In this document: positions 31,201 through 37,200 of the stretch, piece by piece
How positions within the stretch are numbered: position 1 is the first letter of the stretch
Layout of the letters: each line of letters begins with the position of its first letter
IMG/VR virus record: IMGVR_UViG_651053023_000001
Span: 32,001 to 96,000 of that record
Length of the DNA stretch: 64,000 nt
Direction: 5' to 3' (one strand)
Source of the DNA: a virus
Taxonomy: Duplodnaviria > Heunggongvirae > Uroviricota > Caudoviricetes
Made by a program: the position numbers

Positions 31201-34200
31201 ATACCCTTCGTCATCGACACGAACAAACCAGAAGACCAGCTTTTTGTTTCCGGCATCCACAAAGAAGGGAATATTCAGGTCTGCGCAGCACTCAACGGCA
31301 TCGTCAAAATTATCAAAGCGCAGAGCTTCTGCGTCTTCTTCGTCAAAGAAGTCATCGTCGTGAAGCTTCACGACATAGCGGGGAAGTTTGCTTCTTTGAG
31401 GGGCAGGTTTTCGTTTACGGGGTTTAGCTGAACGGGACATATAACTACCTGAAAGACAATGATATTGTCTGTTTTTATAACGGTAATTTCAGGCCATGAC
31501 AAGCCGCAGCCGCCAGGCTGCCTACTCGATGTATTAAGCGCGTTTACAGCGTCCTCAAGCGATTTAGTAATAGTCACATCACCAATGGCAATAGAGATCG
31601 GCAGTTCTGATACTTCTCGCTCATTAGCACGGCAGTAAACATCCCAACCAATATCGAGTTGAAGCAGCATTGACAGATCTGCATAACCAGCCAACAGGTC
31701 CGCGTGCTTAGTTGCCAGTTCTCCAATGTTCGTTAAGCCGGTTGTGGTTGTTCTGATCGTTGAAACATAGCTGGTAATAGTGTCGGGATAGACAATTGTA
31801 TCCAGAATTAATCCGGTCAATTCTTCTGCAAGCAGTTTTGCTGTGTTAGCACTGTTTCGTGCCGATGTTATGGCACCAGGTGTTTTCATCCCACCGGCGG
31901 CGGCCAATTTTTTATATGCGGATAACTGGTAGTCTTTTTCCAGCATGATATCTCCTAACTTACCTGAACCAGGCCGTCTCCGGACGCTACGGTAGATCCG
32001 CATGAAACAGGGTCACCAACGCATACGATCCCTTTACCATTGACGGTAAACCATGCCCTGGTTGATATAGCTTGCCCACCGTGCGTACTGTTTCCATCGG
32101 TATGCTGTGCATATTGCTTACCATCAACTAACACTTCGACTCCGTTGACTTTAAGTAGTGGTTCACTCTCTACAGGAGGCCTGGATGGGAATCCTCCGTG
32201 CCCCGAACAAATGCTGTCTTTTGTTGCAATACTTGCCACGTCATCACCAATTATTTGCTCTGATTTTCGTTATTTTAACTCAGGTTGTTTGTGGTCTACA
32301 TGGAGTTCAACTATTGCAAAATTGCTCTAATAAATATTGTTTTTTATGTCGTATTTTCGGTACCATTCAGCCATCGCCCTTCAATGGGCATTTGTTTGGA
32401 GTCGTCAGATGCAGATGGAGCTAATAAGCCGCAAGGAGTTCGATAGCCGTGTAACCAGCGGTGAACTCGACAACTTGCAGGCTATCAAGGTGAAAGAAGG
32501 CTTTTGCCTCATTGGGAATCAGAGCGGAACAAATCGCGTTTTTATGCTTCGCCGTACGGATTTGAAGCCATTTGTCTGGAAGAACGAAATTGGTCCCAGC
32601 TCATACGCTCAAACGAGGGGGTGCCACAACCTGGCCTTTTTCTACAAAGACGAGCTTTCTGTGGTTGATATTCAAGGGTTACAACATGTTTAAGCACTGG
32701 AAAAACATTACTATTTATAAACTTTCTCGTGAGGCGGATCTGACCGACTTAGAAGATAAAAAGAAAATGATCCTTTTCACGCCATGCGGTAGTCAGGATA
32801 TGGCCAAGTTCGGTTTTGTATCTCCATTTGGTGATAATTCCGAAGTTATCGCTATGCATGGAAATGGTTTTATCCTTGTTGAAGCAAAGCGCGAAACAAA
32901 AATTCTTCCCCCGCCGGTTATCCAGCGAGCTATTCAAGAAAAAATTGAAAAACTTGAGCAAGAACAAGCGCGTAAACTGAAGAAAACAGAGAAGGACTCC
33001 CTGAAAGACGAAGTTCTGCATTCTCTTCTGCCACGGGCTTTTTCAAAGTTTTCTGTTATCCAGGCGATCTACGACGGTTCAACTAAACGTATCTATATCA
33101 ATGCCAGCGCGCGGCAGGCAGAGGATATGCTCGCGCTTATGCGTAAGTCTCTGGGTTCTCTTCCTGTTGTTCCCCTGAGTGTTGAAAATCCCATTGAATT
33201 AACGCTGACCGACTGGGTACGTGATGGTAGTGCTCCACAGGGATTTCAAATGGGGGATGCGGCAGAACTTAAGGCAGTGCTTGAGGATGGCGGTATTGCC
33301 CGAGTGAAAAAGCAGGATTTGGGAAGCGATGAAATTTCCACACACCTGGAAGCTGGCAAGCTCGTTACTAAGTTGGCACTCGACTGGCAGAACCGCATTA
33401 AATTTACACTGGACCATAACTTCAGCCTTACCAGCGTCAAATTTGCGGATGAATTGCTTGAGCAGAACTCTGATATTGATAGTGAAGATGTTGCGCAGCG
33501 ACTGGATGCAGATTTCTTCCTGTTGACCAGTGAAATTTCGTGCCTGGTTGATGCTCTGGTAAATGCCCTTGGTGGAGAGGCTAAGCAGTGAAAGAGCTGT
33601 GCTATGGATCTGTTTGCAGTGGAATTGAAGCCGCGAGTATTGCCTGGGAACCGTTGGGTATGCGTCCGGCGTGGTTTGCTGAAATCGAGCCTTTTCCATC
33701 TGCCGTTCTTGCGCACCGCTGGCCCCATGTCGCCAACCTTGGCGACATGACAAAACTTGCCAAAAAAGTCCTGGCTGGGGAAATCGAATCCCCTGATGTG
33801 CTCGTCGGGGGTACGCCTTGTCAGGCATTCAGTATCGCGGGCTTACGTGGTGGGCTTGATGATGAACGCGGCGCGCTAACTTTGAAGTATGTGGAGCTTG
33901 CAAATGCAATTGACGACAAACGGTCTGAGTCCTTCCTCAAACCGACAGTTATCGTCTGGGAAAATGTCCCAGGAGTCCTGTCATCGGCAGATAACGCCTT
34001 CGGATGTTTCCTTGCCGGATTGGCTGGAGAAGATGCGCCATTTGAACCAGGTGATCGACCTGAATCAGGAAAAAGTAACGCGTTCTGGCGGTGGGATGGC
34101 AAAACCGGTTGCCATGCTCCAAAGTGGCCGCAGTGTGGTTGTATTTATGGACCGCAGCGAAAGGTGGCCTGGAGAATCCTTGATGCCCAATACTTCGGAG

Positions 34201-37200
34201 TGGCACAACGACGCCGACGCGTGTTTGTTGTCGCAAGTGCTCGAACAGACCTCGATCCCGCAACGGTACTTTTTGAGTTCGAAGGCGTGCGCCGGAATAT
34301 TGCGCCGAGCAGAGGCGAGGGGAAGGAAACTACCAGATATACTTCAAACATCGCTATCAGATCTTGCGATGATACAAACATAGTTGCCATGGCACATGGG
34401 CAAGGAGGGGCTGAGATAAAAACCGATAATTCGGCACCAACTTTGACATGTAACCATGAAGCACCAATTGTATTGCTCGTCGACGGTAGAATGCGCCGTC
34501 TTATCCCTGTCGAATGTGAAAGGCTGCAAGGTTTTCCTGATGGACATACATTGATCCCTACGGAAAAGCGTAAAAAAGTTTCTTCAGATGAACTGGCATA
34601 CCTTCGCAAAAACTATCCTGATTTGAGCGAAGAAGAGGCCGCGATGCTTGCAGCTGACGGACCGCGTTACAAAGCGATCGGCAATAGTATGGCGATACCA
34701 GTAATGCGCTGGATTGGCGATCGGATTGCCAAGGCTGCATGTCGGCAGAAGGAAGGGAGTGAAACAAAAGAGCGAAAAGTTAAACCAGCGGCAGAATTCG
34801 AACGGTCCATATTCAAATGGGCTGGTGGAAAATTTGGTGTTCTGGAACAAATCTTTCGCTATTTGCCAGAAGGGAAGCGCCTGATTGAGCCTTTCGTTGG
34901 TGGCGGAGCTGTCTTCATGAATGCCGGATACCAGGAAAATCTGCTAAATGATGTGAATGCTGACCTGATTAACTTTTACAAGACTCTGCAACGCGAGGCG
35001 CATTCACTTATCACTCTGGCACATCGTTTCTTCCAGGACTACAACACGCAGGAAGGATACCTGGCAGTACGGAATGCGTTTAACAAACAAGTCTATGATG
35101 ATTTACATCGCGCAGCGGCGTTTTTGTTCCTGAACCGACATTGTTTTAACGGATTGACGCGTTACAACCAAGCCGGTGAGTTCAATGTCGGTTATGGGAA
35201 GTATAAAACTCCGTATTTCCCATTGCAGGAGATGGAAGCCTTCCTTGGTGCGGAAGGGCGTTCTGAGTTTGTATGTGGTGATTTTGCTGCGGTGATTGAA
35301 GCTGCCGGAGAAGGAGATGTCATCTTTTGCGATCCGCCGTATGAACCGCTCCCAAATACAGAGGGATTTACGAACTATTCCGGTCATGACTTTAAGTTTG
35401 AAGAGCAAAAACGCCTGGCGTCTCTGTTGACGGATGCTCATCGCCGAGGTGCAAAGGTTCTCATTACTAACAGTGGCGCGCCAAACATCAGAGAACTTTA
35501 TCAGGACAGTGGCTTCAGAGTGGAACCTCTTTTTGCCAGACGTTCTGTGTCTTGTAAGGGGGACACTCGAGGTGTTGCTCATGACGTTATGGCAATATTG
35601 CTCTAATAAATTTATTAGTGTAATATCGCCTCAATGAATCGTGATTTATAGAGCGATTTAGCTGTTAGCCGCGACAGGCGCGGCGGCAAGTATGGCGGGG
35701 TAGTGACTCCTTCCCCCTCATGACGCCGAGTTGCCAGGTTGACCATACGCCTAAGTGGCAACACCGAAGTGCGTTACGAGCTTCCAGTTTGCCCATCTTC
35801 GGGTGGGCGTTTTTTTCAGGGTTTTCGTCATGGTTAGCGACTTTGCGGCGGTTTAGAAACTGACCATTAAAGTAAATGCAAACGATGATCTGATGATGGT
35901 AGCGGCCTAAGAAGCCAGACGCCACGGGGTATGAGTCGTCCCCCGTCAAAAAATCGACCGCAGAGTGTCCCCGTCTGTGTATTAGGGAACGGGGAGGCAC
36001 AACAGGTAAGGGCGCTGGTGTGATTAACCAGATGAACGAGAAGGGGCCATCTGTTGGTCAGCGTCCTTTCCTGTTGCGTCTTCTTTTCAGCGTAACAGCG
36101 GTGCTTAACAGCACTTTGGGTACAGTTCCACGAATTTACGGGTATATCCCGTCATGCTGAAAGCGCTAATCACGCTGGAAGCCAGGGTTATGCATCCCCT
36201 GTTACCGAATTGCAGCCAGGGCGCGGTGCGCCGAAAAGCATACGGAGGTGGAAGCCCTCGCCGGAGACGTACCCGGCAAGTGATGGTGTAGCTCAGCGGT
36301 TAGAGCGGTTGACTGTTAATCAACGGGTCGATGGTTCAAATCCATCCACCATCGCCAATGCCGGTTTAGCTCAGTTGGTAGAGCGCCTGCCTTGTAAGCA
36401 GGATGTCAGCGGTTCGAGTCCGTTAATCGGCACCAGCACAACAGGTAAGGGTATTTTGCGACGTCGGAGATCGCCGAGCTTGGCAGAGGGTTCGAATCCC
36501 TACGAAGTACCCTTACCGTTGTGATGAAGTGCAGCTCTTTGAAGCAACCAGAAGATAAGCATCTGGCTTCACAACATAAACCGCAGGAACGACCAATAAA
36601 CGGTAGTCCGTATGGAGAACACCCCGTTGAGGAAGAGGCCTGGCCGGAACCGTAACCGGCACTACAACGTTGAGAACACTGGCGTAACGGGGTCATATCC
36701 CAATCTACGAATAAATGTTGCGTTGCAGCGTGACAACCAGTGTTCTCAACATTGTGGTGAATGCACAGGCTGATGTGCCGCAACTACAGTAGTGCGCGCT
36801 TTGCGGGGCTTGCTACAACCCTGTGTCGGAGTTCAGCACCGACCATCACAGTTTGATTCTCTGGCATGAGCATAACGCTGAAATAAGTCCAGTCTGGTGC
36901 GGCCTGATCACCCGCCGTTAGCTCCACGAAACGGAGCACGTAACAGGTAAGAGCATTCTCCTGTAACGGGTTCATATCCCAATCTACAGGTCCACCAGGA
37001 ATGCTCTTTCCGTTGCGGTGAATGCGGCTAAGCGCACGCGGGGAAATGGTTATATCTGTCCATTATTTCTCCTTATTTCCCCGTCCACGGTGGATAACCA
37101 GCTAAAGGACACCGGGAAGCACCCGGCACCGCAACCTTATTTCCCAACCAGTAATGAGGTTAATAAATGCTCGGCATTCTCAAAAAGAAATTCCGCAAAG

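Follow-up and report, generated by a model that had tools for sequence, protein, structure and literature searches.

What does a phage gain from a gene that fuses two DNA methyltransferases, and what is a repressor operator doing in that gene's stop codon? We address both questions in a 64,000-nucleotide (nt) stretch of a tailed phage genome (Caudoviricetes; positions 32,001 to 96,000 of IMG/VR record IMGVR_UViG_651053023_000001), hereafter the window. Sequence and gene order indicate, with a probability of roughly 95%, that 33588-35606 is the dmt gene of a P1/P7-family IncY phage-plasmid, with control by the C1 operators Op68 and Op72ab. An initial annotation had described a self-protecting anti-restriction enzyme whose stop-codon operator both ends the dmt operon and gates the next one, and parts of that mechanism require correction.

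The locus is already known: in phages P1 and P7 it has been annotated and in part characterised by experiment. GenBank records AF234172 (P1) and AF503408 (P7) carry the gene with its two-domain architecture, the operator and the promoter, all of which also belong to the classical P1 immunity literature, and as a discovery the locus carries little weight. The main value of the present check is that it assigns the window securely to a P1/P7-type phage-plasmid and corrects the mechanism. The gene and its control elements lie as follows.

33588-35606, + strand: dmt (dam in P7), encoding a 672-amino-acid (aa) fusion of a C5-cytosine methyltransferase and a Dam-type N6-adenine methyltransferase
35597-35613, + strand: C1 operator half-site Op72a (Obana), ATTGCTCTAATAAATTT, 17/17 to the consensus
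35608-35624, - strand: C1 operator half-site Op72b (Obanb), ATTACACTAATAAATTT, 2 mismatches, inverted
35598-35626, + strand: promoter P1ban, with -35 TTGCTC (35598-35603), a 17-base-pair (bp) spacer and -10 TAATAT (35621-35626)
32321-32337, + strand: C1 operator Op68 (Odmt), ATTGCTCTAATAAATAT, 1 mismatch to the consensus, abutting the promoter Pdmt

Identity of the locus

A megablast search with the 2.9 kb at 33300-36200 returned P7 and several P1 isolates at 97% nucleotide identity over the full length, and IncY P1-like Escherichia coli plasmids match the surrounding 24 kb at 98-99%. The Dmt protein is 100% identical to RefSeq WP_000660971.1 of the IncY plasmid pMB2910_2, with 1 synonymous nucleotide difference between the genes. 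Gene order and operators are common to the window and to AF503408 and AF234172, and the operator and promoter assignments used here rest on these two records together with secondary papers; a literature search on Op72 turned up nothing relevant beyond the P1 Ref paper. The P7 record names the same 2019-bp gene dam and describes a 'hypothetical bifunctional DNA methyltransferase' for N6 adenine 'and perhaps C5 cytosine'; the P1 record names it dmt and states that Dmt methylates GATC.

P7 Dam (AAQ07538) is 97% identical to the window protein (22 amino-acid differences) and, like WP_000660971.1, resembles it in its 672-aa length, its variable-region allele, its position after hrdC and the overlap of its stop codon with Op(ban). 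P1 Dmt (AAQ14041, 754 aa) is 91% identical over aligned columns and has the same operon, the same two catalytic modules, Op68 and Op72ab. The window gene thus carries the marks of P1/P7 Dmt, namely two modules in one polypeptide, a position after hrdC and membership of an Op68-controlled operon.

Domain architecture

Both catalytic modules and their motifs can be placed along the protein.

33588-34790, + strand: C5-cytosine methyltransferase module, aa 1 to ~400, with motifs I, IV (catalytic Cys78), VI, VIII, IX and X
aa 10-17: C5 motif I, CSGIEAAS
aa 74-82: C5 motif IV, GGTPCQAFS (PCQ at nt 33816-33824)
aa 124-129: C5 motif VI, WENVPG
aa 207-213: C5 motif VIII, QRRRRVF
34308-34493, + strand: variable (target-recognition) region, P7-type allele, ~62 aa between motifs VIII and IX
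aa 303-318: C5 motif IX, RRLIPVECERLQGFPD
aa 365-372: C5 motif X, GNSMAIPV
34800-35603, + strand: Dam-type (D12 class) N6-adenine methyltransferase module of predicted GATC specificity, aa ~405-672, containing FKWAGGK, FxGxG and DPPY
aa 409-415: Dam motif FKWAGGK
aa 434-442: FxGxG-type S-adenosylmethionine (AdoMet)-binding motif, EPFVGGGAV
aa 582-585: Dam catalytic motif DPPY

The fusion of a C5 enzyme to a Dam-like enzyme in one 672-aa open reading frame (ORF), as initially annotated, is borne out by domain models as well as by the PCQ, ENV, FKWAGGK and DPPY motifs. In Pfam, PF00145 matches with E=2.4e-35 (122.9 bits against a cutoff of 22) and PF02086 matches aa 411-644 with E=1.2e-57 (196 bits, cutoff 22), while in NCBIfam the dcm model TIGR00675 scores 112.9 bits (cutoff 100.65) and the dam model TIGR00571 253.5 bits (cutoff 114.85). 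Moreover, PHROG 116, a 779-position profile that corresponds to the dmt of Punavirus, covers both halves of the protein (6.4e-99 and 6.6e-168). At the level of motifs, both catalytic sets are intact, and residues 405-670 align end to end with residues 4-267 of E. coli Dam (2G1P and others, E=1e-58). All six C5 motifs are present in canonical order, including the catalytic Cys78, Glu125 and the QRRRR block.

The gene starts with GTG and stops with TAA at 35604-35606. Its start codon overlaps the TGA of hrdC (GTGA) and is preceded by GGAGAGG, an arrangement that is the usual sign of translational coupling and suggests it here. No nuclease gene lies next to dmt, whose neighbours are uhr, hrdC and tRNA genes; as the initial annotation proposed, dmt is an orphan methyltransferase, since no restriction endonuclease gene is adjacent, and it does not form part of a type II restriction-modification system. 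Minus-strand ORFs within dmt (for example 35103-35582, 34145-34609 and 33199-33828) were set aside as chance ORFs; they are unannotated in related records.

An operator shared by dmt and the ban promoter

The consensus used for C1 operators is the asymmetric 17-bp sequence of Op72a. Nine C1-type 17-mer sites with at most 3 mismatches occur in the window against 0.22 expected, and 0 of 100 shuffles reached nine. The perfect match (0 mismatches) that had been noticed over the TAA stop is Op72a, which covers the Ile-Leu-Leu-stop codons of dmt and the -35 hexamer of P1ban. The initial annotation had drawn a single operator at the end of a feature spanning 33588-35613; Op72a stands, but the end does not, as the inverted Op72b overlaps it by 6 bp, reaches 35624 and covers part of the -10 hexamer, making the operator bivalent. 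The -10-like hexamer recognized earlier is TAATAT, the annotated -10 of P1ban in the P1 record.

The gating of the downstream tRNA and helicase operon likewise agrees with the annotation of P1 and P7, where the site is the C1 operator of ban. The P7 record labels the two 17-mers Op(ban[a]) and Op(ban[b]), and the P1 record treats Obana and Obanb (formerly Op72a and Op72b) as the divalent operator Obanab, which 'controls expression of ban'. The P1 record also puts the sigma-70 promoter P1ban on the same -35 and -10 hexamers and does not mark it 'predicted'. P1ban drives tRNA-Asn, tRNA-Thr, tciABC, tRNA-Ile(CAT), ban and dbn. The 28-bp operator, with both hexamers and ~50 bp downstream, is base for base identical in P1, P7 and the window, with no difference detected, and the codons just upstream vary. 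The C-terminal residues I670, L671 and L672 of Dmt are invariant, and their codons lie within Op72a; the last three dmt codons (Ile-Leu-Leu) are under double constraint because the operator overlaps them.

With the bivalent Op72ab seated on the -35 and -10 hexamers, bound C1 would exclude RNA polymerase from P1ban. In a lysogen, C1 at this site would keep the whole ban operon silent, including the tRNAs, tciABC, the DnaB-like helicase Ban and dbn.

Two results weigh against this control scheme. A sigma-70 consensus scan flagged neither P1ban nor Pdmt, both of which have weak consensus (7/12 for the P1ban hexamers); the P1ban call rests on the annotation of the P1 record. Additionally, a search of the 64-kb window for c1 and for pac-like TGATCA/G clusters found neither; we take the repressor gene and the packaging substrate to be located on another part of the element.

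Whether the operator also ends the dmt operon depends on what lies upstream and immediately downstream of it.

32409-32693, + strand: uhr (upf64.0 in P7), first gene of the operon, matching P1 and P7 in position and 285-nt length
32686-33591, + strand: hrdC, encoding an RdgC-family recombination-associated protein (NF001462, 379 bits, cutoff 330)
35787-35816, + strand: strong hairpin of intrinsic-terminator type, GCCCATCTTCGGGTGGGC followed by T7, the first on the + strand after dmt

In P1 and P7, Op68 and the ~25 bp after it have the same sequence as in the window; the P7 record annotates Op(dam) there, and the P1 record Odmt/Op68 with Pdmt. The uhr, hrdC and dmt genes would be transcribed from Pdmt with dmt last, and C1 bound to Op68 would shut Pdmt in the lysogen. 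Because dmt is C1-repressed from Op68 in the lysogen, its product is predicted to be an early lytic function and not a constitutive protector.

The reading in which the operator both ends the dmt operon and acts as the switch for the next one, proposed together with pre-methylation of phage DNA against host restriction as the main role of Dmt, meets two difficulties here. A terminator scan found no hairpin between the dmt stop codon and P1ban, the first one on the + strand being that at 35787-35816. Furthermore, C1 would occupy Op72 only while Pdmt is itself shut at Op68, so a roadblock at the stop codon would have nothing to block. In rt-qPCR work, dmt and ban are handled as lytic genes under C1 control that are thermally induced to different levels (PMC4713147), and an RNA-seq preprint reports that their responses in an hfq mutant differ (bioRxiv 10.64898/2025.12.28.696737); the differing induction levels and hfq responses fit two separate transcription units. 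The overlap of Op72ab with the dmt stop codon is best read as genome compaction, without termination of dmt transcription.

The Dam half and DNA packaging

The C-terminal module is close to a well-studied enzyme. Residues K9, N120, L122, R124, Y138 and D181-P-P-Y of E. coli Dam are kept in the window protein as K410, N521, L523, R525, Y539 and D582-PPY, and two others are exchanged (Y119 to F520, P134 to G535). In Dam-DNA structures these E. coli Dam positions are the GATC contacts, and most of them are conserved here. The module has the FxKWAGGK, FxGxG and DPPY motifs in common with E. coli Dam (2G1P, 4RTJ and others); unlike that enzyme, it is fused to a second one, phage-encoded and repressor-controlled, and it scores 249 bits against the chromosomal Dam equivalog model NF008152, below the cutoff of 441. 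It is ~98% identical to the Dam module of P1 Dmt, with 5 nonsynonymous differences from P1, and pairwise ratios of nonsynonymous to synonymous substitution (dN/dS) among six alleles are 0.04-0.14 for the Dam segment.

PMC12707154, citing Sternberg and Coulby 1990, states that P1 requires GATC methylation at pac for proper packaging. By this account, dmt is essential on Dam-minus hosts, since packaging at pac needs this methylation. Transferring this from P1 by the ~98% identity of the modules, the Dam half of the window protein would methylate GATC after induction or infection; this methylation would serve packaging cleavage at pac and free the phage from host Dam.

The two activities could also follow different schedules, with the Dam half made alone late in infection from a promoter inside the gene.

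34576-34594, + strand: match to the predicted late promoter LPdam2 (AAGTTTCTT, 4 nt, TGAACT), a prediction of the P7 record, upstream of the Dam module

The P7 record predicts the late promoter at the equivalent position, where the window is identical to P7, and in-frame methionines (M353, M368 and M373) precede the Dam module. LPdam2 is a prediction with a poor proposed -10 (TGAACT). P1 has two substitutions in the -22 box, and its record, over the stretch compared, annotates no promoter of this kind within dmt; we regard separate late production of the Dam half as very improbable.

Five GATC sites lie within ~50 bp at 28179-28230, 5.4 kb upstream of dmt. They correspond to the Dam sites of oriR (incC region) annotated in P1 and P7 and form the only GATC cluster found in the window.

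The cytosine half and its variable region

The N-terminal half has the motif order I-IV-VI-VIII-TRD-IX-X (TRD, target-recognition domain) in common with monospecific C5 enzymes such as M.HhaI and M.HaeIII, with matches at motifs IV-VI (E ~1e-10) and IX-X. Unlike these enzymes, Dmt is without a cognate endonuclease, carries a ~75-aa insertion between motifs VI and VIII and has SGIEAA as motif I. Standalone homologues of the C5 module occur in 1254 phage records, for example in Pectobacterium phage ZF40 (44% identity over 94% of the query). In the pairwise comparison of six alleles, the N-terminal C5 segment shows dN/dS of 0.08-0.18, a range similar to that of the Dam segment, and the C5 half is under purifying selection (dN/dS ~0.1).

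Two unrelated alleles, both in frame, occupy the segment between motifs VIII and IX, the place of the target-recognition domain in C5 enzymes: one of ~62 aa in P7 and the window, the other of ~144 aa in P1 c1.100, RCS47 and SJ46 (4506-4940 of the P1 sequence compared). This accounts for the 82-aa difference in length between the P1 and window proteins, and because the region is replaced, the cytosine target of P1 Dmt presumably differs from that of the window enzyme. Among 497 PLSDB plasmids with the conserved N-terminal part, 184 carry the short allele and 257 the long one. The first 717 nt of the window gene have 0 synonymous differences from P1 against 13 from P7, yet the variable region is P7-type, which marks the window allele as a recombinant mosaic. 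When the variable region was compared with PDB sequences, only motifs IX and X of M.HhaI aligned, and the variable part matched nothing.

From the intact catalytic motifs and the purifying selection on the module, we infer that the cytosine half is active, and it would act at a site set by the variable region. The two full-length, in-frame alleles also count toward a functional C5 half.

In the Dmt of P1 c1.100 mod749::IS5 (3789-6050 of the sequence compared), residue 74 is Trp, against Gly in the window, P7, RCS47 and OP279344. It lies three residues before the catalytic Cys (VWGTPCQ vs VGGTPCQ), and Trp74 may be a laboratory-strain mutation affecting C5 activity.

An intein at the catalytic cysteine

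In RCS47, vB_EcoM-Ro157c2YLVW and the P1 isolate OP279344, dmt contains an in-frame 341-aa insertion directly before the catalytic Cys78 (720-1742 of the RCS47 and OP279344 sequences compared); the window has the empty site at 33816-33824. The insertion starts with CFTAGHMVL and ends with VVHN, followed by the Cys of PCQ (VVHN|CQAF), and it carries two LAGLIDADG-type motifs, LAGAYVGDGY and FLQGYLDTDGT. In Pfam, Hint_2 and LAGLIDADG_3 score above their cutoffs and Intein_splicing below (18.2 bits vs 35.8). The Hint and LAGLIDADG matches, together with the Cys1 and His-Asn/Cys+1 junctions, identify the insertion as an intein with a homing endonuclease.

This intein is found in 133 of the ~497 dmt-bearing PLSDB plasmids and in both variable-region backgrounds. 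Related inteins are present in the cytosine methyltransferases of unrelated phages (Mannheimia, Propionibacterium, jumbo coli- and mycobacteriophages); a literature search found no mention of one in P1-like dmt. The dmt alleles and the intein form are found in hundreds of E. coli and Salmonella plasmids of clinical and animal origin.

The position of the intein bears on whether the cytosine half might instead be an inactive relic, or a structural or DNA-binding appendage, leaving a protein that is functionally Dam only. Several points weigh against cytosine methylation and toward such a relic: motif I is the SGIEAA variant and departs from the textbook GxGG, the P1 and P7 records mark cytosine methylation by Dmt as 'perhaps', the RefSeq name for the protein mentions the Dam family only, and our literature search found no paper that demonstrates 5-methylcytosine (m5C) activity of Dmt or names its target. 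Trp74 in the sequenced P1 c1.100 indicates, too, that at least one propagated strain tolerates change there. A relic is nonetheless hard to reconcile with six intact motifs that include Cys78, Glu125 and QRRRR, with dN/dS of ~0.1 as in the Dam half, and with two variable-region alleles maintained at full length and in frame. Moreover, the intein sits exactly at the catalytic Cys in 133 plasmids, and inteins typically persist where imprecise loss is intolerable. Loss of cytosine activity is thus improbable, and an active C5 half remains the preferred reading.

Packaging aid or protection from restriction

The initial annotation took self-protection against restriction to be the role of the enzyme. 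The P1 role documented in PMC12707154 is GATC methylation at pac, and the same paper describes a separate, dedicated anti-restriction system of P1, Dar. Additionally, dmt is C1-repressed and made only after induction or infection, so that progeny DNA would be modified and entering DNA left unprotected. On the other side, Dmt is an orphan without a cognate nuclease, orphan phage methyltransferases from this C5 family abound (the 1254 phage records above), and two unrelated variable-region alleles, in 184 and 257 plasmids, are expected under diversifying pressure from host restriction. GATC methylation would also protect against MboI/DpnII-type enzymes. Pre-methylation against restriction as the primary role, coupled to an operator that ends one operon and switches the next, is on this balance unlikely. 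An anti-restriction role for Dmt, residing chiefly in the cytosine half, is plausible.

We tentatively propose, at somewhat less than even odds, that the two variable-region alleles of the cytosine half, shuffled by recombination together with the homing intein, represent two m5C specificities and form a swappable anti-restriction cassette on an invariant packaging Dam. In the searchable literature, neither allele has a demonstrated specificity or biological role.

The enzymes of Bacillus phages SPR, phi3T and rho11s offer a parallel, being phage orphans that are silent in the lysogen and carry several methylation specificities per polypeptide (PMC12707154). In those enzymes several target-recognition domains sit in one C5 core, whereas Dmt has two catalytic domains, one for m5C and one for N6-methyladenine (m6A).

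Neighbouring genes and other features

A search of NCBIfam returned no match for uhr. Downstream of P1ban, the order is tRNA-Asn, tRNA-Thr, tciA, tciB and tciC, a CAT-anticodon tRNA and ban.

37867-37942, + strand: CAT-anticodon tRNA, called tRNA-Met by ARAGORN and annotated trnI (tRNA-Ile2, like E. coli ileX) in the P1 record
38223-39593: ban, encoding a DnaB-like helicase, downstream of P1ban

The ARAGORN call of tRNA-Met is probably a naming artefact, because the P1 homologue is annotated trnI.

The hairpin at 35787-35816 falls between P1ban and the tRNA genes, ~165 nt past the -10 hexamer, within what is the 'dicF-like region' in P1. The Rfam DicF model gave no match to the region downstream of P1ban, at E<=0.1 over 7 kb or at E<=10 over 691 bp, and the 193-nt leader downstream of the promoter folds no better than shuffles (z=-1.26). 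The hairpin may act as an attenuator of the ban operon or delimit a short leader RNA.

Upstream of the dmt operon, upfB is interrupted at about 29698-31523 by ~1.82 kb of sequence that P1, P7 and the closest plasmid, pMB2910_2, all lack. The inserted ORF (29796-31169, minus strand) codes for a Y2 transposase of the IS91 family, with Pfam matches to Y2_Tnp and Zn_Tnp_IS91.

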